The notes beneath the pieces are model-generated. The model was not told where the DNA came from. It did no database searches and saw nothing but the letters and a program-made list of their open reading frames with translations. From assembly GCA_017499595.2 (NCBI GenBank), contig CM039004.1:2914001-2978000 (forward strand): DNA of 64,000 bases, read 5' to 3'. Below, piece by piece: positions 8,504 through 30,582 of the stretch (positions are counted from its first letter, which is position 1; each line of letters starts with the position of its first letter). The DNA comes from Psilocybe cubensis. Lineage: Eukaryota. The position numbers and the translations under genes are program-made.

Positions 8504-9176
8504 CACTCTGAGGGCGAGGCAGTTCACCGAATACAACTGTGATAAGTGGTGGCGAAAAATCATTTACAGTGGACGAGTATTAAAAGGAGAAAATCAAAAC
8601 CATCGTTATATCTTTCATAGACCGGACGACTGCGCAGAGATGAGGCGGTACTGCGAGTGGAGTTTGGGGTTGGATTGGGGAAATTTCATGAATATCGTTG
8701 GATGATTATCAGTTTTGGTTAATGCTTTGTTCGAGAGTCCTTGAAACAGAGATATTCGTATTTAAACAAAGCTGCGTATATGCATAGTGCATGGATGCCT
8801 AGAGTTTTGCATAGATTTGGGTGGTTGAACTTTCAAGGGGAGATGAATCATGAAAGAGAGCGAAGTGGATCCCAAAAGCCGTGCCGAGCTTCTGCCGAAG
8901 TCTTATACTCATGAGCATGTGACCGTTCCAAGTCCTCAATACTTCAAAGGATCCCTGACCAATCCCCTCATCCTCAACTCGTTCCACGTCTTTTGCGTTC
9001 TACACTACCATCCTTTTGCTTGCTATGTAGTTTCTCAGTACTCCCAGTTGCAAGTTATTAAAATAAGACAAGTTGAACCTCACGTCAATGTAGTGAGTGG
9101 TACGCTTTGAAAGCAGTTATAATCCATGACATTCATGATTTCCAAATCCAGATCCCTAGCTTCATCTTCCAGACGC

Positions 9177-9569
9177 TGAAGAAAACTAAGTAAACCGTGA
9201 GTCTCAGCCGAGAAGGAACAAGGGCTGAATATATTGACCTAAGTAAACCATGAGTCTACAAGTTCTGTTAGTTACTTTCTACAAACGATGAAGAACTGTA
9301 TTCACCTCAGCCGAGAAGGAACAAGGGCTGAGGTGAATGAACCGAGACGAGCTACTATAAGTGAAAAGTGAAAAAAAGGGAAGGTGATCGAGAATTTGGA
9401 GAAGGTGATGCGTTGTACGCTGAAGGAAATGAATTGCTAACTATAGCAGATGAACAGGGGCTACGGGCCCGATGTTCCGAGTGCAAATAAGGAAAGAGTA
9501 AGTATAAAAGTGGAAAAGAAAAAGACAGAAAGTCGAACAACCACAAACATCAAGTCACATATTCCAACA
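9177..9569 (-). repeat. Copia 3' LTR
   Basis: Identical to 30190-30582 except one A/G at 9250; adjacent to the polypurine tract. Confidence 0.97.
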
Positions 9570-9580
9570 CACCCCCTCAA
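9570..9580 (-). other. Polypurine tract
   Basis: Minus strand TTGAGGGGGTG immediately precedes the 3' LTR start TGTTGG. Confidence 0.8.
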
Positions 9581-10361
9581 CGCATCACCTTGCCGGCAGC
9601 CTTTGGATCAACGAGTCCCAAGCGAGACACCCCCTCCAGGAATTTGACACGTTGAAGTGGTTTAGTGAGGATATCAGCTGGGTTCTCTTTACCCGGAATA
9701 TGAAGAATTTGAAATGTTTTCGCCTCGATGTGAGATCGAATAAAATGATAACGGATATCGATGTGCTTCGCTTTGGAATGGGATGAGTCGTTTTCACAGA
9801 GTGACTTTGCGCCTTCGTTGTCAGTTGCAACCACAAGTGGGTCAGGGCATATGATGTGAAGATATGACAGTGAAGAGCCCAACCACAGACCCTCTTGAAC
9901 CGTCCGAGTTAAAGCGATGTACTCAGACTCCGTCGAACTTGTCGATATGCAGGTTTGTGTTTTTGACGACCAGCTTAACGGCCCTCCCGCTACCATCCAA
10001 ACGAAACCTGAGACAGACGCGCGTGAGACCTTGTTGCCCACCCAGTCGGCATCAGAATAACCCTGCAGGGTCTGAGAAGCACTCTGTCCACCGTAGTGAA
10101 GGCGATAGTTACGGGTGCCACTCAGATACCTTAGAACGCGCTTGGCTGTAGCAAAGTGTCAAGGCTCGGGATTGGAAGCATGTTGAGACAATAATAGGAC
10201 GGCAATTGAGATGTCGGGGCGAGAATGTCGTTGTATAAAAAGAAGGGATCCGATGAGGCGTTGAAAAGTTGCCTTGATGTTCGGTATATCTGGGAATGAA
10301 TCGGTTTCTTGTCCAAACACATTGTTGGCGTCGAGAGGAGTTGAGACGGGACTACAGTTGA
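9577..10361 (-). pseudogene. Copia pol C-terminal part (end of RT and RNase H)
   Basis: RPDIS, KRVLRYL, YSDADW, STESEY, DNEGA, KHIDIRYHFIR, NPADILTK motifs; in-frame TGA at 10159-10161; in frame with the 26151+ part once the KDZ insert and one TSD copy are removed. Confidence 0.93.
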
Positions 10362-10679
10362 CACATAAGACAGTTTATTTATAACATACATTACCTAAGA
10401 TTTAATAATAAGGATATTACGTGAGACACGGTGGATTTACTTCCGCTACCTAATTAGGAGATTAGCGTGATGTACGTGTGATTTAGCCTGGCAAATCATA
10501 GCGTACATGACGTGCCATTTAGCGCTAAATGGAGCCGCCGGGTGGCCTGCGGGATCCGCGCGTCTACCTACACGGAAGAAACACGGGCCGGAAATGAGCC
10601 GGACAGGTCCATTTGCATCCCGTGTATTGCAAGCAGACGGATCCGCTTGACCCGTGTTGTGCTGTCAGACGGACCCATT
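10362..10679 (+). repeat. Left TIR of the KDZ element
   Basis: Reverse complement of 25833-26150, with two mismatches seen (10386, 10605). Confidence 0.95.
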
Positions 10680-10804
10680 CATCCATCCGCTTCTGTATTC
10701 CGACAAATATCCGCCTTGAATCGTACATTGGATGACCGTTAATATATGTAATAAGGTGTATAGATTATACTGGCAGCAAATTCCTTTCCACATACCCTGA
10801 TAGT

Positions 10805-12084
10805 ATGGATTATGCCTTTGAGCTAACCCAATCCCTCTCAAACTACATGAAGGCAAAGATAGCTAGTCGTCTTTGGCATGCAGAACTGCCTAATCAAATC
10901 CGGGAAAACTTCAGTGCTGAGACCATGTTTGAGTGCAATCTAGCTGTGGAGGTGATTTTTCAGGCATTTGAAAATCAAGGTATGCAATCAATAAGCTTTG
11001 AAAATTGAGATTAAATAATGTGTAAATGGCAGAATATACGACGTGGGATGCAGAAGAATATTTGACCCATCTCAGCGCACGTTGCACGGGTCAGAATTCT
11101 GCCGTTGAGGCTCGCCTGAAAGACCAGTTTCCTCCGGTGCATTCCACGTTACAGTACCAAACCCTGCCCGGAACTGTAATCGATAGTGCAGGCAACATAT
11201 TGGTGTGGTACCTGCCAGGTATTTTGTCAGAGACAAGGGTGGTGAGTTTTAGAAACGGACCGATTAATTCCTATATTATGCGTTCTAAAGAGTAACAGGA
11301 GAGTGTGTGGAATTCATTACGGGATATTGAAACAATGATTCACAAGGCGGCACCTTTGGCCACAAGCTGGAGGGTCAATGACAGTTACTTTCGACATGAG
11401 CCAGGTTGGCTTCAACCTGGAAATCTTAACTTTTCCCCGGCATGGTTTCAGCAAGGCCATGAGGTGAGAAACTTGTTTGCTAAGTATTATACTGCCTCAT
11501 ATTTTCCTCAGACGTCCAACCCGCTTGAGGTCTCCTTGGACTTGTGTAATCCTATTGGACAGGAGTTTATACGAGACATGATGACATCTTCGGCTTTGCT
11601 GGGAGCCATCTTGAGCATTATACACCCCGAGCAGTACCGGGCGGGAATAAAATTTCTTCAACGGCTTGCTGCGGAACCGGAGCTCGTCCATAAGGCCGAA
11701 ATATTGAAGCAAATTCTCACAATATGGAGTTCGCCCTTTGGAGTCATGACCGCCATCAGCAACCGAGATACACCGTACCATCGGGATAATGGGTCATGCT
11801 ACTCATGGTACGATTTTTTGATGCCACTTGGGAAGGGTGAACACGGACGGCTTGAGCTTCCTGGCCTTGGACTTCGGTACAAGTATGATCCCATGACCCT
11901 TGTTGCAATTACCGGCAGGTTGCTTCAACACGGCACGGTGTGCGAGGGAGATAGGGCAGTCATAGTCTATTACATGCGTAGGAATGTATTTAAAGAGCTG
12001 GGAGTCCAAGAGGCGGGATGGTCTACTACGTACGATCTTTTTGCAAATTTACCGGCCACCAACACTTTTGATTTTGAAATATGA
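10805..12084 (+). CDS. TET/JBP-family 2OG-Fe(II) dioxygenase (5mC oxidase-like)
   Basis: Predicted exons 10805-10979, 11033-11241, 11299-11463, 11512-12084; motifs VWYLPG, NFSPAWFQQGH, TPYHRD (HxD), LLQHG, DRAVIVYYMR; KDZ context. Confidence 0.9.
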
Positions 12085-12311
12085 TCAGTTTTTGACTTGG
12101 AAGTTGGGTTTGGGGAAGATTTTTTTATATTTCCAAAACAAAACGGTACGAAAGCTACAGGACAACCAGAATTCTCTGTCCCAGGGTGTTTCCGACGCGC
12201 CCGCGCTGAGCTCTTCCAAGGTTACCGGAATCATCGGACTCCGCCGTCGTATTACCGGCGGAAAAGGCATCATCCGCCTCCTCTTCGATGTCCTGTGCGA
12301 GAGGTGGGCAA

Positions 12312-13936
12312 CTAAGATTCCTCATCCCAGGGTGTTTCCGACACGTCCTCGCTAAGCTCTTCCGAGTTACCGGAAGCATCTGACTCCTCCGTCGTATCAC
12401 CGGCGGAAGACTCCTCATCCGCCTCCTCTTCAAAGTCCTGTGCGAGATGCTCTAAAAACGTAGCTGGTGTAGAGGATTCAGTGGTATCGGACGTACTATC
12501 AATATCATCCTCTTCTCCCGGGAAAACAGGTCTTGACCTTGCGTTAAAAAGGAAGGCATTGCTGGTGTGTGCATTTGACGGAGGGCTGACGGAACCGGGA
12601 GTAGGCAGAGTATCTGTTGGGAGATGAATATTTGCAGTGTTGGAGGGTGGCGAATGATACCAGAGTGGATGAAAAGGTAGTTCCTTGACGGCAATAAAAG
12701 AATAAAAAATGTCGTTGATGTAAAATGAAGCGACTTTGAGCTTTGAGACCTCGAAGGACCGGGCTTGAGCCGTTATAGCACCCCAACTGTCAGGAGAAGG
12801 GTGAACGGGATGCTGAAATTTGTATTTGGCTGAAAGCCCCTTGCCGTTAGAGAACGGGTGCTCCTTAGAGTCAATCCACATCTTCTCCAATACAGAATAT
12901 CTGCCCAAGGCGGCCGAAGAAGTAGTCACTGCTTTATGGGCATTCTTCATTTTGTCCGCCACATTCCGGCGCAGGTGAGCCAACTCCCTCATTACGCCCG
13001 TTAGGATAGGCTGACCGCAGCGGGGACAGTAGGGCGGTCTGTGGTCAGAAATTGCAATTGGGGATGTTTCATCCCGCGTGTTTGCAACACGGGTCGGCGG
13101 ATTGGGTTTCCCCGTGGGCGGTGAAAACGCGGAGCCGTGCTTTCCCGTCAACGCGGATCCGTGCTTCCCCGAGGTGGGGACGGATGTCCGTTCAGCCGCC
13201 TTTCCCTTGCCCTTGGGATTGTTTTCCTGATTTCTTGGAGGCCCAGAGGTAGATGAACTTGCGCCCTCCTTAGCTTCTTTCCTCTGATTATTTAGCCGGA
13301 GTACCTCTTGTTGGTATTCAGGCAGAACCACCTGGTGGGAAGGACGCAAATCAGATATAATCCACAGCAATAAAAAAACATACCTTGTTCCAAAATTCTC
13401 TTGCTTGCGATTCAACGGTAACAAAGGCAACTTGCCACTCATCGCCTTCAGCAAATCCGTCCCTCCACCAATATCCCCAGCTCTTGGTCTGATTTAAAAT
13501 TTCATCATCTTCCCATGCTGACCAGCTTTGATTTAGAGATTCAAATAAAACAGCTCGATGGTGGGGAGTTCGGTTCAAAACGGCATGTACGCTCTGATTG
13601 AGAATTTCTGATATAAAAAATGGAATATTGACTTGGAATCCATTGACATAGCAGTATCCGAGTACTCTCAGCAGTATAGCCTGACGACCAGTTCTCAATA
13701 CAAGATATAATCGTTCAAAATTACTGTCTTACCACCTCCAGGTCGAGCAAATACATCCATTTTTGGCGACGCACGGAGGAAACAGAGTCTCCGTTTGCAA
13801 TGAACAAACGGTATCCGGCACGGATCCGTGCACCACAAATATGGACATGAACTTTGGCCAGAGCACGTCGCTTATCATAGGTAAGGAGATGATGTTCGTC
13901 CTCGACAGGAGGTTTAAAAAGCCGCGGTAAGTGCAT
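12312..13936 (-). CDS. Uncharacterised KDZ cargo protein (~500 aa, CPRC motif, acidic tail)
   Basis: Predicted exons 13936-13733, 13680-~13385, ~13331-12312 join in frame via GT-AG introns. Confidence 0.6.
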
Positions 13937-13980
13937 GAATTCAACGAGATGGGATACAACAAGAATGTTCAAAGAACTGG

Positions 13981-16900
13981 TTAATCTGTAATTATAAATC
14001 TCCACACGGACAGATACTCCGGGTTAATTTGACGGAAGACCTTATCCGCGGCCCGCCCCAAATCATTCCACATGGCAATCTGCTTTTGAGCATTTGCCCT
14101 GTGACCAACTAACCTGTCAGGAACAAAATCATGCCGTGCACGCCATGTCTTTGCCATATACACATAAAATCTGACAGTCCATTCCATTTCCTTTTTTGTC
14201 AAGGCCAGCTCTTCTTGCCATCTATTCCTCTGAGCTCGCGCGCGGAGCCAGTTTAGCCTGAAGACTAAGAAGCCCTTGAGAAAAAAATTAGAAATACAAA
14301 TAGCAGTACTCACACTCATTAACGTATAATTGATTATCATTGTCCAGGCCCTGACGGGATCTCCAAATCCAACTTAGACGGTCCGAGCTTCCTCCGCGAA
14401 TGTTCGGATCCGACACGGCATTACTATGCTTGCAATCATGGACTTGCAGAATGGGATATTGTTTCCGAATATTATCCTCGTCTCGCACGCCAGCAGATAA
14501 ATAGATCATCTTCTGACGGTTTGTGTTGTAGAGTCGCCGGTGCAATTTCCAGGAAGCATTCAAAAGCTTGACGCCATCCCAAGCACGAGTCCCCATATAG
14601 ACGGAGTCGGCGGTCCGAACCTGATATTTATACTGCCAAGAAAGCTGGATCAAGGCTGACCGGACCGCTTCCAGACAGTCCTCTGCGTGGCCATGTCTTA
14701 TTTGAAGTTCAAGTTTGCGAAGCCCTTTTAAAATGAGGTTTGTTCCCGCGTCAAGGCCGTCAAAGAAATCTTGTTTGACGGCGGAGGGAAACGGAAGCGG
14801 CTGTCGTTCCGGATCCGCGCGGGTAATGTTGACATTTCCAAGATCAGGATCGTCGTTGTCACTGACTTCATAGTCAAGTATGGGAGCAATGTCCCCTTGA
14901 ATATCCTCCAAGACATCTTCGCCCATGAAGGTCATAGCGGATCGACAGAAGGCTTCAACGCGGGTCCGCATGGAGCGACGTTTATTGACCAAGTCAAGTT
15001 TCTGCGCGGTGGAAGGATGCTTTCCGAGCTTTCTGACATGGTCCCTGAGCTCCAATCTAAAAGCATGTTAAATTCTGTAGGATGCAATTGAAATAATCGT
15101 ACTGCGCTTGCTCCAGTTTTAAGCCGGATGATATCCATGCTGCCTTTCCAGTAGCACCATTAGATGTAAGTTCCATATTTGAAAGATGCAATTCAATTTC
15201 TTGGCGTCCAGCAGCCGTTTTCACTTTGCTTGCCATTACCTTGCCAACAGCGTCGGCCACACCTTGTTCTCGGTCCGCTTCTGCTTTTGAAATTTCATCT
15301 TCCCAAGTGTTGATGAGCCCGGAATCTTGTTGATCCGTGATACCCCTATAAAATCGGTCTGTGATTCCGGACTGTTCCCGTGCCCGTTTGAACTTTGCAG
15401 CAATTGTTGCAGCCATATTAATGGTCTTCTTCCAGTTGGAATCCCCCATGTGGTCGTCCAAAACCTCTGCTCGATGGGCAGTGGTAGCGGAACGTGTACT
15501 CCGGGATGTGTCATTTAACACGGACCACAACGGCTCCAGGATTTCTCCGTCAATGATTCCCACACCCGGGACATAGGTGGATGCGTAGTTGTAAAGACAT
15601 TCCGTCTTGTGCCCATGGACGTGAAATAAACCAATTGCAAAAATCATTTTAACAGAAGGTGGCCAATGCATTTTTGTGGACTCTGAGAGACGCCTTGCCA
15701 AGTTAACGCAATATTGACAGTTTATATCGTAGATTTCCAAATGTTTTGTGATTCCCTGTGTGTTGGTAGTTTCCCTGGCCTGAGTCAAAGACCAATCCAT
15801 GTGCATCTGCTTTTCGCCTTTGTCAAAATCGACAACGCTGGATGGACAGAAGCATCCGTGCCTAGCGCAAGCGTGTGCCCCAATTCCACGTACTCTCTTA
15901 CCCGGGCTGACTCTGTTTTCAGCTTTCTGGGCGTGGTAGTTATGACATGTTTGTTCCTGATATTTTTTTACACAGAGGATAAGCCATCCGCCGTGGAAGA
16001 TTTTTTTGACACGGAAGGGAAGCATCCGCCGTGGAAGATTGTGACACGGAACGTAAGCATCCGCCGTGAAAGATAAATCATGGTAGATAACGCACCCGTT
16101 TATAACGTGGAGCAAGAGAAATTGCTTCCTTGATGTGCTCCTTGTATGGGCCCGGAGCAGTCATGTATCCTTCTCCAACGCTCAACCAAACATCGTCTCC
16201 CTCGTTTTTCTGATTGAGGTGATCTGCTTTGAAATTACCATCTGCAACATAACTACGTATGTACAGATTGCTATTTGCTGTTAATTGCAGTCACCCTTGA
16301 AGAATAACTAAAACTTGCCTGTCAGCATCATCAATCCAGGTATCAGGTAGGTTTATTCCAGGCTGTGGACAGGCGGGGCAGAATAAGGCCAACTTCCCTC
16401 TCCTATCTTCAACTTTGGGATGATCCTCGGTCCGCGTCATTTGTGGTGCAGGCGGACCATCTAATCCGCCGTGTCCCAGAGACGGGTCCGTTGACATTCC
16501 GACTTCTTGAGACGGACTATCAGATCCGCCGTCAATTGGATCAGATACATTAATACCCATCCTCTCTGGTGATGAATCATGGCAATGATGATAGTAAGGG
16601 ACCACCGCTTCTCTTGTATGCCCTTCTCCGTATTGTCGTCTCAGGACAAGGTCCCTGTATTCTCTACTAAGCCTTCTCAATTCACGATAGCGGTTCAGCA
16701 CCTTTTTTGGAAACGCTGGCAAAGTCAGTCTTCGCAACTTTTGGTAATACTGATAAGCCGACGTTTTGCACTCGAGGTTGTCCATCCGAAAGTCCTCAAG
16801 GACCTCAACTGTGAACACAGTTTGAACGTTTTCAAAGCTGGCTGCAAATAATCCCATCTCCAGATACTGTAAATCGATAGACGGAAGGCGGACGGACCGG

Positions 16901-17903
16901 CATGTGCATGTTCGCACGGGCAGATAATGGACTCCGGAGGTGTGCACAATTGCCTTGAAAGGAATTCCATTGTTGTCTGCTGCCTTTGGACGAGGTTGGT
17001 CCAGATAGGTTGTATCGACTTCCTCGAATAGATCATCGTCTTCATCGTCTCCATCGTCCAGCTCAACCAAATGGGGTACCTCCGGGTCCGCCAGAAGCTG
17101 AGCCGTAAAGGATTCTTGGTCATTGCTCGCAGGAAGCGGATCCAGGTCCAATCCGTGTTCATCCTCAAAGATGGGCGAATTGTTTCCGCCGTGCCCATGA
17201 CTCCCGGATGAATTGTTTCCGCCGTCGCATCCTAGATGGCTCGGATCCGTGGGATAAGGACACCGCTTCCCATTATGACCCAAATACAACTTGACACCCA
17301 CTTCCCACAGAGCTCCCGGACGGAAATATAGACCCGTCCACTTCTCAACGCGGTGGAAAGGTGTAAATTGATGGTTTCTTCGCAGGCATTCAGAACACAA
17401 AATTCTAGAGCCAAAGCATTGGCAACATCTCCACACTCCAGACATTCCTTGACATTGCTGACACCGTCCATTCAGATCCGGATCCGGGGCTTCTCCTCCA
17501 ATCATTGTTCCAAGATACACCTCTCGTTTCGGGAGCCATTCCCTCAGGTAATCATTTTGAGACTGGATAGGTAAAGTCATCCTGATCATTCTACTAAAAA
17601 CATGTTAAAACATACCTTTCCTCCCGTTCTGTCGTCATCTAGCTGTCTCAGGTTATCAAGTACCTGCTGATCAGTTAGATCTCCCGGATAATGAGGTATT
17701 TCTTCTTCCAGAATGTTGTGTTCATGGTTTTGGAAAGAGTAAGTCGTTGTTTGAGGGAGGTTTGTTGATGATGATTCTGCAGGAAGTTTGTGGATCCTCG
17801 GCCGCCCTCTCTTTCGTTTCTTGGCCCCACTAGACCAGGAGGCCTCCCGAACATTGGGAAACTCCTCATCCGATCCCCTATCAGGTACTTTCTTGAAGCC
17901 CAT
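13981..17903 (-). CDS. KDZ transposase with CxC2 cysteine cluster, apparently intact
   Basis: HRVEKW..LGHNGKRCP, HTSGVH..CTC, CPACPQPGINLP, VADGNFK, CARHG..DFDKGE, YDINCQY, FHVHGH..C, DGEILEPLWS; six predicted exons, no internal stop seen. Confidence 0.93.
15978..16075. repeat. Three ~35-bp direct repeats with core AAGC(C)ATCCGCCGTG in transposase intron 15957-16095
   Basis: Read directly from the sequence. Confidence 0.8.
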
Positions 17904-18782
17904 GGATGTTGGAAACAAAGAGTCTGACAGCCTGTGAGCGCAGATCTAAATGTAGTATAACATGTTTATTTCTGTAGATAAATTTCCCTCAATTATGCCG
18001 TTTTAAAGAGGAGAAAAATAGCTTTCATATGACTTATCTTGCAGCATATTTGGATGAGTGAGTGAAATGTTATGAACAAAACTTAATCCAGAGATGCACA
18101 AAATGGACGTGATCCCATCATAAATGTACAATATGATGCAGAACGACCCTTTCAGAACCACACTTTGGAGTGTTTTTGAAATATCTTTTCACTGGCTGGC
18201 CCCTCATTCCTCCGGCGTATATCATATGAAAGATATTTTTAATAGCTACCGAATGACATTTTTTGTAGAATGTGAATCCTCGTATTTAAGGAGATATTCT
18301 CAATATACTAGAAAATGTGTCAAAATGAGCTCACTGGGATCATTATATTTTTTGAAAAAAATTATGCATTTGAATACCTCTCATGGTCTCTGAGATGACT
18401 GCCGTTTTGGGTTTCACAAGTTTTGGGTGAGAAGACGTGAATTTGAATTTTGTGTTTCTGTATCTTTACAGCCATCTAACAAGAATTTAAAACCTTGTAA
18501 AATTATCTTTATATAAAGCGCTAAATGTTTACAAAATTTCATGTTTATTGATTGAGTGCAGAGGGAACTATTGCAAAATCATGAGGTCAATGTATGTGAC
18601 AGCGACCAGCATGCTTTGATCATCGTGGCCGACGATGAAGCGGGATTACCTGATTGGGAAAAATATGACATCACATCATTCATTTAGTATGATCGGAAGC
18701 TTATTTTATCTCCGTATGACGTGAGATTTGACTAGATCACACAGATACTCATCGATAAGCTACTTGTTACATCGCTGCAATT

Positions 18783-21093
18783 ATGCCCACCAATGCATCC
18801 CCCGACGCGGATCCGCTTCCTTCCACCGCAAATGCCACAACCCACAACGGACCCAGAAGCGGACAGACGGCGGAGGGTGACTTTCCGCCGGAAGAATCAA
18901 ATATATGGACCACAAAGGAAATGCGCGTGTTGAAAAAGCATGTACAGCCCTACAAAGATACATCAAAGTCATCCAAAGCAGACTACATACAGAACACTGT
19001 CATACCTGAGCTGCAAGCTACATGGGATCACAGATACTCTAGACGTGCTAGGAAGGAAGATAAGCAACTACACAAAGAATGGAAGGTGAAGAAGCATGTG
19101 AGCTCGTTGTTTCTTTGAAAATTTTGTTACACACATAAACCATCACAATAGCGAATTTTTAATTGGTTTAGAAACCATGCGTCAAATCGAATTGGTGTAA
19201 AATTGGAAGGATTGAACTCCCGTATAACCTTTCAGACGGTATTCCGTGAGGAGAAGTCGGCAGAGATTGACTCCGAGGTTGCGCTTCTATCAGGGAATGC
19301 TGCTCGTGGAAGTAAAGATTGGATGAAGTTTTATCAACAAGGACGTAAGCAGGTTGAGGCCAGATTGACTCAGGAGGAGCGGGACAGGTTCATGGAGATC
19401 CTTGAGGAATGGAATAAGAAAGGTGTTTCAAAATCAATGAAGGCAAAGTGAGTCGGTGGAACTTGTTTCCGCCGTCAATCTGACATCTGCAGGACTGCTG
19501 CCAGGCAAGGCAGAAAAATACTTCGACAAATGGAGAAACTTAAGTGGCAGAGAATGGGTATGAGGTCCATTACCTTTGAGGGGCATTATGATATTGAGGG
19601 TAAAATCGAATACTCAATGTAAGTGTTAAACACGGCATGAACAAGTTCCGCCGTGAATGCTTACGGCGGAAACTTTATCCGCCGTAGGGTGTTTACGGCG
19701 GATAAAGTTTCCGCCGTAAGCATTCACGGCGGAATAATTTGGCCCGTATTAATGTTGACTGATGGGCATTGAAGGACCCAGACAAGCGATCTAGCACTCA
19801 ACGATGTCAGAATTCCTTCCTTTGGGCAACTCTTTCCATCCGAGTTGGCCGCTTTTCACAGAGCGTTTGTTCAATACCTCGTCCACATTTCAGAAATAGA
19901 GAAGGGTGTGGCCAATCCAGCACTGCCAGATGCATCGTTTCATGAAAAATCCCTCAAGTTTAGCAGCAATGGATTTCCAATAGTACCTAGTCCTATCTAT
20001 GGCTCAACTGGGAGAGAAGTCGCTTATGCGCAAAAGTCAATTATTAGAATTTACATGAACAAGGTTTATGGTGTGTAATTTGTCTATGTCCTCAACAAAC
20101 TTGCTAACTATGTATACAGCTTTAGCCAAGGATAGGCCTGGTTCAAGTGTTCCTTGGGATGCTCTTGAAAGGCGTTCTGCAGAAATGATTGATCCAGAGT
20201 ATTGGCCAAGTTCAATCCCCGTGACGGATCCGAGCCGGCTCCGCCTGGAGTCAACCTCTGCAATTCTCAAGCTATGGAGGGACCGTCAAGCGCAAGGAGA
20301 CATCCCCTTTAAATTCTCAAAGGTTTTTGGAAATGGCTATGACATTATGGAACCTCTCTATCCGTCCAACTTGTTTGACGGCCTAGAAGCCCACCCGATA
20401 CCTCCACCTCCTGCAGCCATAACCAAACGTCGGCTGAGGCAAAAAGCTATACGACTTCAAACCCAATCTTCAAGCGACTCTGAATCATCCAATCTGTCAG
20501 AGTTTGATAATGGACGGGGCAGTCCGGCATCCGCGATGCCACGCACTACTGCCAGATTTGAAGTCACGCCAGAGACGGATGAGACTCCTACCGACGCACC
20601 TTCAAGATCTAGCGAGCCACCCTCTCTACCAAGTAGATCCAGCCCAACAATTGTCAATCCATCATCCAGCCCAACTCCAGAGGTTGAGGAGGCGCCTCCC
20701 AAGCCAGCTAGAAAGATTATGCCAAGAAAAAGAACAAATCCATATGTCGGAACGGCGGAAATGGACGGACCCGATGAAGAGAGTTCTGTACCCCCCCCAG
20801 TTAAGCCAAAACCAACTAGAAGGATTAAACCTAGGAAAAGAACAAAGCCCTACTCAGATCCACTTGACACAGTGGAAGAAGATGGAGTCCAAACAGGAAC
20901 AACCCAAGACACGGATAATACACGGGCTGGCAGGGACGTGACTTGTGATGCCTTTGTGGAGACAGTAACAAGTCCAGATACGGATGAAACACGGGCCCGC
21001 AGGAATGTGACTTCGGATGCCTTAGCACTTCAGGAAGCAAGTCTGCTTGTTGTAGCAGGTAAAAGACAAAGAAAAAAAACTTTGAAAGCCTAG
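18783..21093 (+). CDS. KDZ-associated protein with homeodomain-like and divergent HMG-box-like regions
   Basis: Predicted exons 18783-19097, 19152-19447, 19493-19618, 19775-~20072, 20121-21093; RIFNWFRNH and LTQEERDRFMEILEEWNKKG motifs; basic C-terminus. Confidence 0.7.
19646..19734. repeat. Perfect 41-bp inverted repeat with 7-nt loop, inside an intron
   Basis: TTCCGCCGTGAATGCTTACGGCGGAAACTTTATCCGCCGTA-gggtgtt-exact reverse complement. Confidence 0.95.
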
Positions 21094-21371
21094 CTGTTGA
21101 AGTAGATTCATGATACCTATTGAATGTGATGCTTTTTATTCTTATCTTGATGTTTCTCAAACATGTTTTCACACAAAATCAAAACAGAAAGCGGGGTTCA
21201 TTAAAAATCATCAAGTGCTACTTTTTGGGAGAGGTATAAAACAGATGAGCACATGAGAGTAAAAACTATATACAGTCCAAATGATGAAAAAATTGTATAG
21301 GGATGTGAGCAATGTAATATATGACAGGCAAAAAAGGAGACCAAAAAAAAGTTACAAAGAATTGAAATACA

Positions 21372-23210
21372 CTACTTTTTTTGGGCCTTGGATTTTTTGG
21401 GCGAGCGCGATGCTTCAGCCAGAGTCGTTTCCGCCTTTCGCTTTCGTCCAGCCCTTGTCTTTGTGGCTATGTTCGACGCGGGCAGCGTGGACGCCACGAT
21501 CTCAACATCCTCCTCCTCCACAATTTCAACCTCGTCGCTGTCCGAGGGATCAGACAACTCCAATGAGTGTCCATTCCCGGATGGCCCAGCCTTGGAGGAT
21601 GGCTTAGCCTTTGACAATGGCTTAGCCTTTGAGGATGGGCCGGCCTTTGACGATGGCGCGGCCTTTGACGATGGTGCACCCTTTGACAACGGTGCGGCCT
21701 TTGACGTCGAACTTCAAGGACGTGGAGCTGGGAGAGGGGGTGGTGGAGACAGGGAAAGGATGGGCGGTACCGGTGGGAGCGAGGGTCGGCCAGCTGGGGG
21801 GGGCGAAGGCGCTTCCGGAGTCGAACCGGGCAAGAATAGCGCTGTTGGTGGCGCAGACACGGCAGGGAGGACGGGTGCGGGTGGAGGTGGGGGAGGGGAA
21901 GGGAGGACAGGTGCTGGCGGTGGTGGAGGAGGGGAAGGGAGAATGGGTGCTGCTGGAGGTGGAGGTGGGGAAGGGAGGGGTGCTGGCGGTGGTGGTGCGC
22001 TTGGGGATTGTGGCACAGAGGTGGGTTCACGGGTCCGCGACGGACCCGATTCTTGTTTGACCTCCGTCTTGGAGGGTCCTGCTGCCTGTTTGGGGGCGGG
22101 ATTCCTTTGTTCATCCTGCTCCAGCAAATCGTCGACCACATCTCGGACGTGGTTGATCCTCTTGGTGATGTCGTTGAACATCGTGACGGAAAGCGAGGTG
22201 CTTCCTGCCACTTGTTCTTTGGCCATGGTCCATTCGGCCTTCACCTCTTGGATGCCGTCCTCGATGCTCTTCATCCTGTTCTCCACCGCCAAGTTCGTCT
22301 CGGCAAACGTCGCAATCCGTGCATTAATCGCCGTCATGGACGCGGATAACCCGTCCAGCCGTTCCATGATTCTGCCTTGGCGCTCAAAGAGCTGCACAAG
22401 CAGTTCTCCCACATCCTCGGGGAACGACCCTTCCCCGGCCTTCCCCTTCGCCGGAACATCTTCTCCCTCCTCCAACTTCAACGCCTCCCCATAGCTTCCC
22501 AGTGGCGTCGTCAAAAATTGACCCACGAAGGTGTTGCGCCCCGGGTAGAAGCTGCAGTGGATCTTGCGAGACTTGCAAGACTCGCAAGATTGGTGCTTCA
22601 CGGGGACGAGAGGCTCAGTGCCTGTCTCCCCCTTGACATAGCATGGCACCTTGAATTTGATGCATGCCGTGCACCTTTCCACCATGTCCACCATCCCCTC
22701 TGGCACCTGGCGCACTTTCTGGGATCTCGACCGCGCCTTCCTGATGGGGGGGACATCGTCCTCGGTGTCCTTCTTTACGGAACGCGTGCGCATCTTCCGG
22801 GTGGGGGTGGCAGTGGGGGTGGTAGGCGGTGCCCCTTTGTTATCGCCTTCGTCGTCCTCGTCGACGTCCGCGTCCGCGTCTTCGTCCGTGTGGCTTCCTA
22901 TGATCGCCTTGCTCCTGAATTTCCCCTGCTTGGACTTCGCCAATCTTGCCAGCTTCTCCCTGTACGCTGGGTGACCGGGCATGTTGGAGGCGGTAATGTG
23001 GGGAATGATTTCCCCCTTCTTTGTCCGTGGGCCCCTGTAATCCGCTGGAGCCAACTGAATGGACTCCACGGGGTCCGCCGCTTTCCGTTTGCCCTTGTCT
23101 TTGTGGGCGTCTGTCACGGGTCCGTCTTCCACCGGGGGTTCGACTGCCTTGCCCTTGCCCTTCTCGGCCCGTCTCTTCTCCGTCTCCTCCTTGTTCCTCT
23201 CCTCGTCTGT

Positions 23211-23244
<34 letters not shown>

Positions 23245-23946
23245 CTCTTCCTCCTCTCCTCCGCCTTCTGCCTCTCCTGCTCCCTGGTCCTCCTCTCCTG
23301 CTCCCTCTTCCTCCTCTCATCCTTTCTCCTCTCCTCCACCTTCTGCTTCTCTTCCTCCCTCTTCCTCCTCTCCTCCTCCTTCTGCCTCTCCTCCTCCTCC
23401 TCCCTCTGCCTCTCCTCTTCCTCCTCCCTCTTCTTCTTCTCCTCCCTCTTCCTCCTCACCTCCCTCTTCCTCCTCTCCTCCACCCTCTGCCTCTCCTCCT
23501 CCTCTTGCTCCTCCTTCTCCCTCCTCTTCTCTTGCTCCTCCTCCTCCCTCCTCTTCCTCTGTGCCTCCTGGCCTTCCTGGTAGGCCTTGAAGTTGGCGAC
23601 TTGATGTTTGAGCGTCGCCCAGTCGACCTCAAACCTGTAGATGTTCTCGCCGTCCTTGCCCTGGATGACTTTGTACGAGTAGACAACGGGGCTCGCAACA
23701 TAGTCAATGAGCCGGAAGCGGGCGGCGTCCCTGACATGCTCCTGACACAATGGAACCTATTGGAATTTTTTTTTTTGTTGAGCAAGTCATGATCTTATAA
23801 AATTGAGAACTTACCAAGTCCCTGTAAAGCTGCTCCAACTCAGCGTTGAACGCGCTTTCACCGTTGCGGTAGCACTCGGTAAACTTTTTTTCCCAGTCAG
23901 CGAGGCGTTGGGCGAAGGTGGCGGTGGTGGAAGATGAAGCGGCCAT
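21372..23946 (-). pseudogene. Zn2Cys6-cluster, E/R/K-rich coiled-coil, Pro-rich cargo protein with an in-frame TGA near the C-terminus
   Basis: CTAC-x6-C-x18-CESC-x6-C; one intron near 23757-23814; TGA at 21714-21716 is in frame with the downstream SSKAAP-repeat/KRK tail ORF. Confidence 0.7.
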
Positions 23947-24431
23947 TGAAAAAAGCGTGTTTTTATGGGGGAAGACGCGTTAAATGGGTGAGGCACGGTA
24001 GAACGTGAGGGTGGTGATCGTGGTTGGAGTTAGTCTAAAAAAAGTCTAAAAAAAAGCGGTCCCGCAAAACAAAACCATACACAAACATGTACAATCTGAG
24101 TCATGTGATTTCTTCACCAGATCCAGTTTGTGCAAAAGTTGCTAAGTTCGATACACGGGTGAATCTATTTCCGTGTCATGGAGAATCCTCGGATAGTATT
24201 GTATTCCGTGAGATATATAAACAAGCCCACCCAGTTGCACTTTCTGGACTGTATGTCCTCCTACAACTTTATTCCCACCTCTAGCAAAAATTCCCCCATT
24301 GACTACACCAGTCTTAACAATCTTACCAGGCTTCTTGAAAAACTGAAGGAACCTCCTCCCGTAAAACCTATAAAATGTAAGACTAATGGCATTAATTCAA
24401 GTAAATTTTAATTGATTTCTGAGCATCAGCA

Positions 24432-25754
24432 ATGTCTTCAAATATTAGCAACTCTAAGGAAAGCAAACGCACAGCAAGGACGGATGACCTGGCTCCGCCG
24501 CCAATGCCAGTCATTCCAGATAACCTGGCTCCACCCCCTATGCCTGTTATTCCAGATAACCTGGCTCCTCCCCCTATGCCAGTCATTTCATCTAACCTGG
24601 CTCCGCCCCCTATGCCAGTCATCCGGAAAGACCTGGCTCCGCCGCCAATGCCAGTAATTCCAGCTAACCTGGCTCCACCCCCTATGCCTGTCATTCCAGC
24701 TAACCTGGCTCCGCCGCCAATGCCAGTAATTCCAGCTAACCTGGCTCCGCCGCCAATGCCAGTAATTCCAGCTAACCTGGCTCCACCCCCTATGCCTGTC
24801 ATTCCAGCTAACCTGGCTCCGCCGCCAATGCCAGTAATTCCAGCTAACCTGGCTCCACCCCCTATGCCTGTCATTCCAGCTAACCTGGCTCCACCCCCTA
24901 TGCCAGTCATTCCAGCTAACCTGGCTCCACCCCCTATGCCAGTCATCCGGAACGACACGGCTCCGCCGCCAATGCCTGTCATCCGGAACGACACAGCTCC
25001 GCCGCCAATGCCTGTCATCCAGAACGACACGGCTCCGCCGCCAATGCCTGTCATCCGGAACGACACGGCTCCGCCGCCAATGCCAATCATTCCAGATAAC
25101 CTAGCTCCTCCCCCTATGCCTGTCATTCCACCTACCCTGGCTCCTCCCCCTATGCCTGTTATTCCAGATACCCTGGATCCTCCACCTATGCCTGTCATCC
25201 GGGATGATGTGGCTCCGCCGTTGATGGCAGCACATGTTTCATACACGTCTGTCATCGACAAAATCATTATGGACTCTCGTCCAGCTATTTCCTCTGAGAG
25301 GAAGCAAGGTCGCTATTCTCCACCCCCTGAAGCATGCCACCTGCTCCTTCAAAACCCTTATTTTCGAACCTACGGCAGGTTTGATCCCATGGGCGGCTAC
25401 CCCGGTTCGCCTCCCACCCAGTCTGACATTGAGTTCGAGGATGTGACAGATCAGACGGCATATTTTAACCCTCCTTTTCTATATGTATGCACTTAGATAT
25501 TACCAAGCACTAGATACTGACAACTATTTTAGAATTATACCGAGCAGCAGCTACGGGCAACATACGACCAAATAATTGACAGTTCCGTCGGCGACAATAG
25601 TTATGACAGCAAGGTCACAACGTTTAAGAACCTCCGCCTGCATCAGCTGCAGTCAGAAATTCTGACTTATAATGCGCTGGAGGAAATTGACGCTGGGCTG
25701 GCAGGGATTGAATCGAGTTTGGAAAAGCATTTGTATACCGGTAGAGATGAATAA
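24432..25754 (+). CDS. Proline-rich tandem-repeat cargo protein
   Basis: ~20 copies of NLAPPPMPVIPA; predicted intron 25485-25532; last exon NYTEQQLR...GRDE*; the true start may lie in an upstream exon. Confidence 0.65.
24483..25222 (+). repeat. 36-bp coding minisatellite (~20 units)
   Basis: Repeating acctggctccgccgccaatgccagtcattccagcta-type units. Confidence 0.95.
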
Positions 25755-25832
25755 ATTATTTTTGGAGCCCTTGTGCTCATTGATTCGCAATACCTCTCAA
25801 ATATCCCTCCCTCTCTGGGAAGATACGGGTCA

Positions 25833-26150
25833 AATGGGTCCGTCTGACAGCACAACACGGGTCAAGCGGATCCGTCTGCTTGCAATACACGGGATGCAAA
25901 TGGACCCGTCCGGCTCATTTCCGGCCCGTGTTTCTTCCGTGTAGGTAGACGCGCGGATCCCGCAGGCCACCCGGCGGCTCCATTTAGCGCTAAATGGCAC
26001 GTCATGTACGCTATGATTTGCCAGGCTAAATCACACGTACATCACGCTAATCTCCTAATTAGGTAGCGGAAGTAAATCCACCGTGTCTCACGTAATATCC
26101 TTATTATTAAATCTTAGGTAATGTACGTTATAAATAAACTGTCTTATGTG
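25833..26150 (-). repeat. Right TIR of the KDZ element
   Basis: Inverted copy of 10362-10679. Confidence 0.95.
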
Positions 26151-29100
26151 CAGTTGAGAAGTCCATATTCATCTAGGACGTTTTCAATGTAAGGCCTTTG
26201 GTGAATCCAGAGTTCGCGAGTGGCTAGGTTCCGTTCGTATTGTACACCCAGGTAAGATCGAAGCGGACCTAGATCCTTGATACCAAAACACTTGTTGACC
26301 TCCGACTTGGTGTGTTCAAGGAATGCTTTCGAATTTGATGCCCCCAACCCATCGTCTACGTGAATGCACAGCCAGCAGTGTATTTGCTCTCCACTCCAGA
26401 TTCCTTCGAAGATGAATGTGGCGTGATCTTTTTCTGACCGTTTAAATCCTATATCTTGGAGCGTTGAGCGAATCAAGATATACCATACGCTACTTGCCTG
26501 CTTCAAACCGTAAAGTGACTTTTTTAATCTCCAAACGCCATTCGAGAAGGGGGAGGAGTAACCGGGAGGACACTTCATGTAGATGACTTCTGATAAGTCT
26601 CCCCATAGGAAAGCCCTCGTGGCGTCAAAACACTCTATGTGCCATCCATTGAGGGTCGCATGTACAACAATTGCCCGAATGCTGACCGATTTGGATACCG
26701 GCGCGAAGGTTTCATGGTAGTCGATGAGGTATTTCTGAGAGAAACCTTGCGCCACGAGTCTCGCCTTGTAGACTAATTCTCCCTTATCGTCTATTTTGAA
26801 CTCGAATACCCAGCGACATCCGATGGTGTGTGTGCCTTCGGAGAGCTGTTCGTCTAGGTATACATTCATCGATTTGAGCATGTCGAGTTCTTTTTGAATA
26901 ACCTTTTGCCATTGATCAGCGTCTGGTCGCTCCATCGCTTCGGCAAAGTTGGAAGGTGGAATTTTTAGGTCGTAGTTTGGTGAGTGAGGGTTTCGTCTGC
27001 GTTCGCTCCGGACTGAGAGTAATATCGCTTCGAAAAGTAGGTCCTTATCGCGTGCTAGATAATCTTCAACATCTAGCGAGACTAGTGAGGTGTCTTCGAA
27101 GTCGCGCGGAGGGCACTCCAACATTCCGACAGAGCACAAAGAGATGAAAGGATTTTCATCACTGTCACCCCCTTGCTCGTTGGAAGGCTGGACAGTTGAC
27201 GAGCGCTCAGCGCTGGTCGCTCTCCGCGACGCAATGATTGACTCGCTTTTGGCTTTTTCGGCTTCACGAAGCTGATTGTAAAGCACACCCCTTGACGATG
27301 GATGACGTTCTCGAGAGGACGAACGAGGAGGAGGTAAAACGCGTTGGGCGACGGGCGTTGGAGGTTGATGAGGAGGAGAAGTAGTGGGTGGGGTGGAGGG
27401 TATAACATCGATATCTACGGATGAAATTGAAGAGGACAAAGGTGTAGATGAGGAATGAAGAAGTTCAGGAGAATCAAGATCAGAAGGTGTAGCTACAATA
27501 TTCGGAACGGACGGTACAGAAGTAGCAGAAGAAGATGAAGGAGACGAGGCACAAGAAGTGGACAAAACGCCAGGTAAGAAAGGTAAAGAGGAATAGTCAA
27601 CAGGAAGAGAATTATTATTAGAATTAAAAGGAAAAGGCATGTTTTCGTCGAACATAGCGTTCGAGGAATCAAAAAAATGACCAGTCTCAAGATGTCGGAA
27701 ACGATACCCTTTCCCCCCAGGGGGGTATCCCATAAATCTGCATTGTACAGATTTGGCACCTAACTTTGATTGCTACTCTTCAGGGACGTGAACAAAAGCA
27801 CGACAGCCCCATACACAAAGGTGAGCGAGATTTGGAGGGCGATGGTACATATTTTCGAAAGGAGTGATGCCGTCTTCATCGGTGGTGGTGACGTTAAGAA
27901 GGTAGGATGCAGTGAGGGCCGCTTCACCCCAATAAGTCATTGGAAGCTGAGCTGTTGTAATCATTGCGAGCATCCGACCTTGAATCGTGCGCATGAAACG
28001 CTCAATTTCACCGTTCATCCAGTGTTCACGGGCAGGGGTGACCTCCTGTTCAATTCCCGCTTCCATGAGGTAGGCGGCAAAACTACCTTTCCACTCGGGC
28101 CCTCCATCGCAGCGGAAGCGTTTGATTCTGAAACCCGTACGCGTCTCCCAGCGTGCTTTAACGATTTTGAAAGCTTCCAGCATTGTGTCGGCGGTTTTAT
28201 CGGCAGTAAGCTGGACGTTATTGACTTTCATTCCGGCACAACGAAAAGCGACAAAGTATTCTTTATGATGTGGAGTTCTGACGGGAAAAGGTCCGCAAGT
28301 ATCGGCCACAATAAGCTCGAGGGGCTGATAGGCGCCCTGGCCAAGTGAACTTGGCGGATGCGGGGTGGCCGAGTGCTTGGCGATAATGCACGACTCACAT
28401 TTAATGTTATTGTCTTTGACGTCAGATTTCATAACTCTCTTGACGAGCGCGCGGGTAGCTTGTTCACCAGGGTGACCCAGTCTCATGTGATGGAGGTACA
28501 TGGTCTCGGGAACTTTCACAAACATGACGCGTTCCACTGTTGAGTCATCGGTGTTTGGTACGAAAGATGTCCTGTCCATCGCAAATAATCCGTGAATCAA
28601 GGATGCTGATGCGAAAGTGACACCTTCTTTGGATAAGTGTATTCCCCGACCAGGATCGAAGTTACATCCGATTCCTGCAATGAAGAGTCGACTGACGGAT
28701 AAGAGGTTTACAGCGGCACTGGGAGCATGCAAACAATTGTTGAGTTTGAGTTTAATGGTCTTTCCTTGATATGTGACATTGAGAATACATGTACCGCCCC
28801 CTTGAGTGGTCAAAGTGCCCAGGTTTGCCGTCGTGACATTCCTAGCATCGCTCTCCGAGTAGGTATGAAATAAATGACGTGATTTAATGATATGGGAGGT
28901 TGCTCCAGAGTCAAGGAGGATTGAGGTAGATAAGAATGATCTCGCGCTTGCTGCGGCGACGAGGTTTTGTTGAGTGCCATCGAGTTCTTCAATTAAGGCG
29001 CATGAGATCTCCCCAGTATCGAGAGAACCCGAGTCGACTGCAACAGACGCCGTCTCCGCTTTCTTTGCTGCCATTGCTGCTCGATATGCGGGACCCTGCC

Positions 29101-30040
29101 CCTCCATTCCGCCACCTTTTGCCCAGCAATGTTCCTTGTCGTGTGAACGATTCTTGCAATTAGTGCATCGAACGCCGTTGGGATTGTTGGCATGTTTGGC
29201 GATGGGTCGGTTATCATTCGAGAAATTCGAATATTCGGACCCTGGAGGGTGACGTCTTGTCCCTGCTTCAGCCTCGAGGCGTTGACACTCGATTGTCAAA
29301 CGGGCCGTGATTCTCTCGAGAGCAGTATTGGGCGCGGATGGCGCTCGTCCTTCCTCAACTGCTGCCTTGTCTCTGTCAAGCGTATCCTGATAAAGCTGAA
29401 TCATAAGTTGTTTGAAGTTTGGCCAAACACCAGAGGACGGAAGGCCGCGGATAATGTGATGAATGATATCTCCCTCCGGGTAGTCAACACCCATGTCTTT
29501 AAGTCTCTCTCTGCCGGTGCGAAATTCGCCCATGTATTTCTCGATTTCGGTGTAGTCTTTGAGTTTGATTGATGCCAGCCTTTCTTTGATAGCGAACTGA
29601 GCGTTAATGTCGACGCGAGCATACCTCGTCATAATCTGATTCCAAACCATCCTCGCAGTGATGTCTTCTCCAGCGTTCAGGTTGGATTTAACAAGTGCCG
29701 AGACTTTCCTGGTAATGAGCGTTTTAGCGCTGTCATCATCGCTCCACCATTTCCTGTAGGCTGCTATGATCTCGTCTGAGGCGTCGTTGGCAGGTTCCTG
29801 GGGTTTCGGTGAAATTGGATATCTCGCTGTTCTGCTCTCCGATCCCTCAATGTGACCATAAACTCCACAATCCTTTAGGATGTTGCGCATGTCGTCTCTC
29901 CATGCAATGAAATTCGAGGTTCCTTCGAGGTTCACAATATGATCGACCTTTACGTTCGCAGGCGTAATTTTGGTGCTCATCGTTATGTTGTTGATGGTCG
30001 TGTGGGCGGTGTTTGGAGTTTCACCTGCCATGGCCGACAT
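26151..30040 (-). pseudogene. Copia gag-pol (Gag, CCHC knuckle, protease, integrase, RT)
   Basis: CTNCKNRSHDKEHC, LLDSGATSH, HMRLGH..CESC, ADTCGP/RCDGGPE/NGEIER, YKARLVAQGFSQ, LYGLKQA, HVDD; in-frame TAG at 27773-27775. Confidence 0.95.
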
Positions 30041-30176
30041 TTTGGTATGATGAATTTATTGAGTAAAGTAGACGTTGATTTGGATACAATGAATGAGCTG
30101 GTGCCTTCTGAAAAGACACAAAACTGTGAGCCTGAGGACTGAGGTTCGATTTAATTCGTTTATTTCAGGCGCTAGC

Positions 30177-30189
30177 GGGGCCCATAACC
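30177..30189 (-). other. Primer-binding site (half-tRNA iMet type)
   Basis: GGTTATGGGCCCC directly after the 5' LTR, complementary to the initiator tRNA-Met anticodon arm, as in copia/Ty5-type priming. Confidence 0.75.
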
Positions 30190-30582
30190 TGAAGAAAACT
30201 AAGTAAACCGTGAGTCTCAGCCGAGAAGGAACAAGGGCTGAATATATTGACCTAAGTAAACCGTGAGTCTACAAGTTCTGTTAGTTACTTTCTACAAACG
30301 ATGAAGAACTGTATTCACCTCAGCCGAGAAGGAACAAGGGCTGAGGTGAATGAACCGAGACGAGCTACTATAAGTGAAAAGTGAAAAAAAGGGAAGGTGA
30401 TCGAGAATTTGGAGAAGGTGATGCGTTGTACGCTGAAGGAAATGAATTGCTAACTATAGCAGATGAACAGGGGCTACGGGCCCGATGTTCCGAGTGCAAA
30501 TAAGGAAAGAGTAAGTATAAAAGTGGAAAAGAAAAAGACAGAAAGTCGAACAACCACAAACATCAAGTCACATATTCCAACA
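30190..30582 (-). repeat. Copia 5' LTR
   Basis: 393-bp direct repeat of 9177-9569. Confidence 0.97.

Follow-up and report, generated by a model that had tools for sequence, protein, structure and literature searches.

A CcTet-like TET/JBP dioxygenase gene is cargo of a probable Kyakuja-type transposon in Psilocybe cubensis

Is the TET/JBP gene at positions 10805–12084 of a Psilocybe cubensis chromosome segment a working part of a transposon, and which methylated base would its product act on? We addressed these questions in a 64,000-nucleotide (nt) stretch of contig CM039004.1 (assembly GCA_017499595.2, positions 2,914,001 to 2,978,000 of the forward strand), referred to below as the window. 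A first-pass annotation had described the gene as an apparently intact, transposon-borne TET/JBP with the catalytic spacing of CcTet, the TET enzyme of Coprinopsis cinerea. It had further suggested possible activity on both 5-methylcytosine (5mC) and N6-methyladenine (6mA). Our analysis favours, with a probability of roughly 0.78, a catalytically complete CcTet-like ('AG-type') Fe(II)/2-oxoglutarate (2OG) dioxygenase, carried as cargo by a complete and apparently autonomous Kyakuja-type KDZ transposon.

The gene lies on the plus strand and has four exons. Together these form a 1122-nt frame, encoding 373 amino acids (aa), without a stop or frameshift. Read directly, the start ATG is at 10805 and the stop TGA at 12082–12084. 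The exons span 10805–10979, 11033–11241, 11299–11463 and 11512–12084, the last containing the catalytic core. All three introns are of the GT..AG type: 10980–11032 (53 nt, GTATGC..CAG), 11242–11298 (57 nt, GTGAGT..CAG) and 11464–11511 (48 nt, GTGAGA..CAG). A search of 5.8 billion clustered proteins produced 468 candidates, of which 14 matched at E ≤ 1e-5. Foremost among these was P0001, a 373-aa 'hypothetical protein' of P. cubensis whose cluster has 17 members. It aligns end to end, without gaps, and 352 of 373 residues are identical. Hence, an independent annotation has the same start, splice pattern and stop as our model. The 21 residues that differ leave the frame, the splicing and every catalytic and cofactor residue unchanged. 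For all other genes of the element too, the nearest named relatives are P. cubensis proteins. Two alternative gene models were rejected. An extra exon upstream of exon 1 conflicts with the annotated paralogue, which begins at the same Met and for which the fold model described below is confident from residue 1. Retention of intron 3 was discarded, although the intron is in frame, because the CcTet alignment has a gap there and the stretch is absent from P0001. Two sequencing runs that we only guess to be RNA (X4 and X5) placed 0 contigs on 10200–17700 at 90% likeness; they are uninformative about transcription and splicing.

Family membership was assessed with profile and sequence searches. 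The open frame 11296–12081 matches the Pfam family Tet_JBP (PF12851) with an E value of 1.5e-19 and 70.2 bits (cut-off 34.9), over profile positions 3–163 of 164. A phmmer search of the Protein Data Bank (PDB) with the same frame identified CcTet as the best solved relative (7vpn and 7w5p, E 2.5e-27; 8jkk, E 1.2e-26). CcTet is also the best PDB relative of P0001, which is 94% identical to the window protein (E 3.3e-37). These matches indicate that the catalytic pattern reflects true family membership and not chance. Each element of the pattern reported by the first-pass annotation was recovered. These are His-Arg-Asp (CAT 11779–11781, CGG 11782–11784, GAT 11785–11787), an Asp 11 residues past the His (GAT 11812–11814), a distal His exactly 50 residues past the first (CAC 11929–11931) and a downstream Arg (AGG 11953–11955). 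The claim of CcTet-like spacing also holds. The offsets of +2, +11 and +50 are those of H326, D328, D337 and H376 in CcTet, and the Arg is at +58 versus +59.

We then mapped individual CcTet residues using HMMER alignments of the window frame and of the collinear P0001. Residue numbers and functional assignments are from PMC11040006. The metal ligands H326, D328 and H376 correspond to H273 (11779), D275 (11785) and H323 (11929), and R385, which forms a salt bridge with 2OG, to R331 (11953). Further 2OG contacts R321, T323 and Y361 align with R268, T270 and Y308. The first-pass annotation had named failure of the Asp to align with the CcTet residue as grounds for refutation; the Asp at 11812 (D284) does align with D337, in an ungapped stretch of high posterior probability, and this check does not refute it. 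R393 is R339. W204 and R205 are W152 and R153, and the finger residue H234 is H182, all encoded by exon 3. Exon 2 encodes the equivalent of CcTet loop1, where R92 is R75. F391 is replaced by Y337, and F391Y is tolerated in CcTet (PMC11040006). Of the CcTet-specific cofactor and DNA contacts (R321, T323, Y361, R393, W204/R205, H234, R92 and R96), only R96 is changed, to Q79. Other substitutions are S73 and A74 for T90 and P91, G277 for S330 and S278 (codon 11794–11796) for G331. Hence, the window protein has Ser, not Gly, at the position of G331.

The fold was examined using an AlphaFold2 model of P0001, built from a 48-row alignment (predicted local distance difference test score 94.7; predicted template modelling score 0.94). 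In a Foldseek comparison with the PDB, the first 10 matches were all CcTet chains, with template modelling (TM) scores of 0.84–0.92 and 25–26% identity. These were followed by NgTET1 (TM 0.45–0.63), and then by CMD1 and human TET2. Thus, the model of the paralogue P0001 has a double-stranded beta-helix of the TET type.

A complete element of 15,789 bp (10362–26150) carries the TET gene as cargo. Terminal inverted repeats (TIRs) of 318 nt mark both ends. The left TIR (10362–10679, plus strand) begins CACATAAG and the right TIR (25833–26150, minus strand) ends CTTATGTG; the pair is 99% complementary, and the element termini are CA..TG. Direct reading shows the identical heptamer CAGTTGA immediately outside each end (10355–10361 and 26151–26157), a 7-bp target-site duplication (TSD). 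The TET ATG is found 126 nt inward of the left TIR, so its promoter is presumably located in the element's first 443 nt. Contigs from two public DNA sequencing runs (X1 and X2) span the entire stretch as short pieces of high depth. In X1, 2+2 contigs diverge from the window at 10358/10362 with unlike flanks, which is not a copy count. In both runs, a contig continues past 10679 into sequence internal to the right end. The contigs fit a repeated element with exactly this left end. The protein clusters number 17 members for TET and 39 for the transposase.

Convergent with the TET gene is a multi-exon KDZ transposase gene on the minus strand (12315–17903). It includes a KDZ domain exon (15060–16160; Pfam PF18758, E 1.2e-37) and an exon encoding a CxC2 cysteine cluster (16294–17604; PF18803, E 2.5e-21). 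The gene is collinear with P0015, a 1691-aa P. cubensis protein from a cluster of 39, over residues 1–1691 at 94–100% identity (69 matches in the search). A single stop is present, inside a 42-nt stretch that is absent from P0015 and that we take to be an intron. There is also one 5-residue insertion relative to P0015. As judged from the sequence, the transposase gene is apparently intact. Its C-terminal extension (12315–13493, 393 aa) had no usable match in the Atlas and none in Pfam. The TIRs, the TSD and the transposase gene bear out the description of the TET gene as transposon-borne. The two genes are only 230 nt apart and convergent; hence, their transcripts may overlap. Between the TET stop at 12084 and the transposase stop at 12315 begins a tandem duplication of about 145 nt (12160–12447, 79–88% alike), the extra copy of which repeats the last ~40 codons of the transposase gene. 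We also observed that contigs of X1 and X2 skip 39 nt at 15962–16002, at the edge of a transposase intron, an indel among copies or strains.

Kojima 2025 (PMC12730594) describes Kyakuja elements as carrying AG-type TET genes, with 7-bp TSDs and CA..TG ends. The TSDs of Zisupton and Dileera are 8 bp. The window element has the KDZ domain, the CxC2 cluster, a 7-bp TSD and 5'-CA..TG-3' termini. The length of the TSD and the type of TET argue for assignment to Kyakuja over Dileera or Zisupton.

The element is inserted in the pol gene of a copia-type long terminal repeat (LTR) retrotransposon on the minus strand (9169–30481). The 300-nt LTRs (9169–9468 and 30182–30481) are 99% identical, and RVT_2, gag and integrase-type domains are recognisable at 26147–30055. 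When the element and one copy of the TSD are removed, the pol frame continues through the junction, giving an open stretch of 605 aa versus 542 aa when interrupted. The insertion therefore postdates a retrotransposon that is itself young. Apart from the insertion, the copia pol gene is broken in at least two other places: it falls into open stretches of 760 and 605 aa, followed by a separate 193-aa RNase H-like frame at 9580–10158. Base composition varies across the locus. The element has an observed/expected ratio for CpG of 0.80, and the TET gene one of 0.74; the values are 1.24 for the TIR alone, 1.01 for the copia host and 0.95–0.97 for the remainder of the window.

Which base the enzyme would act on depends on how the aligned residues are read. 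The first-pass annotation took the Asp at +11 as a pointer to 6mA activity. This argument is not supported, although the description of an apparently intact, transposon-carried TET/JBP dioxygenase with CcTet spacing stands. In CcTet, the contact between Asp337 and 6mA is hydrophobic only; the residue substitutes for a missing N4 hydrogen bond to 5mC (PMC11040006). Consistent with this, the D337F substitution abolishes 5mC oxidation while 6mA demethylation is kept (PMC11040006). Hence, the Asp marks the CcTet way of holding 5mC and not 6mA activity. Space for the N6-methyl group of 6mA is instead provided by Gly331 (PMC11040006).

We assessed both positions across the family. A HMMER search of 1.84 billion representatives returned 1143 proteins at E ≤ 0.001, 578 at E ≤ 1e-10 and 67 at E ≤ 1e-30. 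The family is therefore large, and the 578 representative clusters at E ≤ 1e-10 indicate conservation across the Agaricomycetes. The window protein was aligned with 162 relatives (150 from among the matches listed of the 1143, plus matches from the clustered-protein search). A 12-residue motif search of the retrieved proteins did not recover the CcTet sequence itself. The first His is kept in 155 of 157 aligned rows and the distal His in 146 of 148. Where a residue is present at the D337 position, it is Asp in 144 of 155 rows. This near-invariance means that the Asp does not single out the window copy. At the G331 position, the 155 rows with a residue have Gly (67), Ser (59), Ala (14), Thr (7), Cys (4) or others (4). 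Rows that lacked either His or did not span the catalytic core (27 of 163) were dropped. The remaining 136 were used for a FastTree phylogeny with local support values only; the column holding the Gly/non-Gly trait was left inside the alignment. The tree requires at least 24 changes between Gly and non-Gly, at least 6 of them forced by well-supported branches. Hence, the position is labile. The nearest rows to the window protein all have Ser, and the window protein is itself a Ser form. According to Kojima 2025, the Asp is conserved in Kyakuja-borne TETs and the 331 position is 'Gly or Ser', which is taken there to suggest activity on both 5mC and 6mA (PMC12730594).

The window enzyme might be bifunctional like CcTet, oxidising 5mC and demethylating 6mA in duplex DNA, with the second activity mattering to the element. 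We regard this as rather doubtful. CcTet is the closest solved relative, Asp284 aligns with D337 and the residue at 331 is small, a state from which Kojima 2025 infers both substrates (PMC12730594). The frequent exchange at this position, with at least 24 changes to or from Gly, is also compatible with functional equivalence of Gly and Ser. However, in other TETs the side chains at the 331 position clash, and hTet2 gains 6mA activity upon N1387G substitution (PMC11040006). Because D337 is dispensable for 6mA, the shared Asp is uninformative (PMC11040006). The side chain and hydroxyl of Ser278 could bind cytosine N4 instead, and R96, which is needed for DNA binding by CcTet, is Gln here. Furthermore, 6mA is scarce in Dikarya. 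Judged by its aligned residues, an enzyme with Ser at this position may possibly act on 6mA but is less likely to do so than CcTet. A bolder suggestion, which we think unlikely, is that Gly/Ser at 331 is a natural substrate switch, with Ser enzymes acting only on 5mC and Gly enzymes being bifunctional, and that the window element may be currently mobile and experimentally usable. If so, the Ser hydroxyl would take over the N4 contact and block the N6-methyl group. The changes on the tree would then represent repeated retuning of the host mark that the transposon erases.

The most likely role, by analogy with CcTet, is that the enzyme oxidises 5mC and so counters silencing of the element. It would be expressed from the left end of the element. 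Methylated cytosine would be flipped from duplex DNA by the finger residue His182 with W152/R153, while Asp284 would hold cytosine N4, as D337 does in CcTet. Stepwise oxidation would then yield 5-hydroxymethylcytosine, 5-formylcytosine and 5-carboxylcytosine. Marks that silence the element through 5mC would thereby be reduced or rewritten, as would probably those on neighbouring repeats, and the transposase gene would stay expressible. The steps are drawn from the biochemistry of CcTet and from maps of oxidised methylcytosine (oxi-mC) in C. cinerea, where Kyakuja regions are rich in the modification (PMC12730594). The anti-silencing idea itself is reasonable and already published (PMC12730594).

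Several points weigh against a CcTet-like enzyme that protects its own transposon. The substitutions G331 to Ser, S330 to Gly, R96 to Gln, T90 to Ser and P91 to Ala could alter DNA binding or the choice of substrate. Between aligned blocks, the window protein has a segment of 22 aa, versus 53 in CcTet (residues 147–199). The shortened segment overlaps DNA-binding loop2 of CcTet, residues 163–210 (PMC11040006). The folded sequence was the 94%-identical paralogue and not the window protein. The CpG ratio is lower in the element than in its surroundings, with no sign of protection from methylation-linked C-to-T decay. Finally, the published oxi-mC maps suggest non-specific action on many repeats and not on the enzyme's own element (PMC12730594).

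This last point raises an alternative role. The enzyme could act in trans across the genome, or write oxi-mC marks that tune the timing of transposition or host chromatin ('self-marking'), without protecting its own element. In C. cinerea and L. bicolor, oxi-mC covers DNA transposons, retrotransposons and centromeres, and action without target specificity has been proposed (PMC12730594). The window protein accords with this: outside its CcTet-like core, no domain for targeting could be recognised. Nevertheless, many independent lineages of transposon have kept TET genes linked to transposases (PMC12730594), a persistence that speaks for some benefit to the element, and a role of this kind seems unlikely to us. 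It is also conceivable that the TET gene is intact merely because the insertion is young, the copy being silenced or already non-functional and its frame free of selection. The TIRs and the LTRs of the host copia are each 99% alike; with so recent an insertion, the mere fact that the frame is open says little about function. This copy also sits inside a retrotransposon, in what is likely a methylated neighbourhood, and the CpG ratio of the TET gene is 0.74. On the other side, all catalytic and cofactor residues are kept, and P0001 differs at 21 of 373 positions yet keeps the frame, the splicing and those same residues. The size of the family, with 578 representative clusters across the Agaricomycetes, and the report that TET frames in transposons are mostly undisrupted (PMC12730594) point the same way. 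We therefore consider an inert gene improbable, and return to a catalytically complete enzyme carried by a complete transposon as the favoured reading.

The right half of the element holds further cargo. A 344-aa open frame (20059–21093, plus strand) had no Pfam family above cut-off at E ≤ 1. A second frame, of 680 aa (21714–23756, minus strand), combines a stretch rich in E, R and K with a Cys cluster in two parts and a tail rich in Pro. Only 3 protein clusters matched it at E ≤ 1e-5, all named P. cubensis, one being 100% identical over 86% of the part searched. The frame is lineage-restricted cargo of the element. Its matches in the Atlas scored only 0.84–0.86 and were to unnamed basidiomycete clusters. 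A candidate Zn_clus domain in this frame was rejected (E 0.23, below cut-off). Minisatellites in coding phase occur at 21561–22020, 23136–23589 and 24400–25299. In the plus-strand frame 24423–25496, a 36-nt unit present ~25 times would be translated as a Pro-rich repeat of 12 residues. The other minisatellites have 18–21-nt and 18/36-nt units, and open frames overlap on both strands. No gene occupies the stretch from the transposase start (17903) to the 344-aa frame (20059); it contains an inverted repeat of 41 nt (19646–19734) that is perfect, is rich in CGGCGGAA and has a 7-nt spacer. To the right of the repeat nest, the window contains host genes for an aldo/keto reductase (33144–33608, minus strand), a WD40-repeat protein (37359–38535, plus strand) and an MKT1-like protein with XPG_N, MKT1_N and MKT1_C domains (55587–59326, minus strand). 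A GRA6 match at 1329–2228 was rejected as chance (E 0.00053, below cut-off).

Much of the conceptual background is published. PMC12730594 already covers Kyakuja elements that bear TET genes, the conservation of the Asp, the occurrence of Gly or Ser at 331, the idea of 5mC and 6mA activity and that of anti-silencing. Psilocybe is unnamed in the main text of that paper and, as far as it is legible, in the supplement. Our full-text literature searches recovered no paper pairing Psilocybe with Kyakuja or with KDZ. A search for P. cubensis together with transposase and methylation returned only unrelated work. The long TIRs and the extra cargo are two minor variant features of the element. The locus overturns nothing in current understanding, and CcTet is the biochemical and structural reference. 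What the locus offers is an unusually clean example, with both ends, a TSD, long TIRs, an intact transposase and TET, and a datable young copia host. The protein is a convenient natural Ser variant of CcTet Gly331 for probing the choice between 5mC and 6mA. The element is a candidate active copy for asking whether a transposon-encoded TET counters silencing.

Among known transposons, KDZ1 of Cryptococcus neoformans, from the Dileera clade, resembles the window element in being very large (10,944 bp), in its TSD and in having long TIRs (236 bp) and extra genes of unknown function (bioRxiv 10.1101/2024.08.15.608186). Transposition of KDZ1 has been observed experimentally (bioRxiv 10.1101/2024.08.15.608186). 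Its TSD is 8 bp, it has CxC1 and no TET gene is reported for it in the part of the preprint available, whereas the window element has a 7-bp TSD, CxC2 and TET. The TET-bearing Kyakuja elements of Agaricomycetes (Kyakuja-1_LB, Kyakuja-2_LB and Kyakuja-1_AuPo; PMC12730594) have in common with the window element a KDZ/CxC2 transposase with AG-type TET cargo, the 7-bp TSD and the 5'-CA..TG-3' ends. The printed start of Kyakuja-1_AuPo is identical to the first 7 bases of the window element, CACATAA (PMC12730594, supplementary table). In contrast, Kyakuja-1_LB and Kyakuja-2_LB are described without TIRs (PMC12730594), whereas those of the window element are 318 nt and 99% alike. The ~8 kb of further lineage-restricted cargo, at 17.9–25.8 kb, also sets the window element apart from the Kyakuja families described.

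Among known enzymes, human TET2 and Naegleria NgTet1 belong to the same superfamily and share the His-Asp-His triad and the 2OG arginine. However, TM scores are only 0.45–0.63. At the Gly331 position, their Asn1387 and Asp234, respectively, hold cytosine N4, and they have Thr/Ser where CcTet and the window protein have Asp (PMC11040006). CcTet (PDB 7VPN, 7W5P and 8JKK) differs in several respects. Identity is ~25% in the structural alignment of the P0001 model, and the crystallised chain has 430 residues, versus 373 aa for the window protein. Gly331, Ser330, Arg96 and Phe391 are replaced by Ser, Gly, Gln and Tyr, and the Arg at +59 is at +58. Conversely, the model of the paralogue matches CcTet over its whole length (TM 0.84–0.92). 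The H-x-D motif and the offsets of the +11 Asp and +50 His are identical in the window protein. The two enzymes further share the 2OG contacts R321, T323, Y361 and R385, and the base and DNA contacts W204/R205, H234, R393 and R92.

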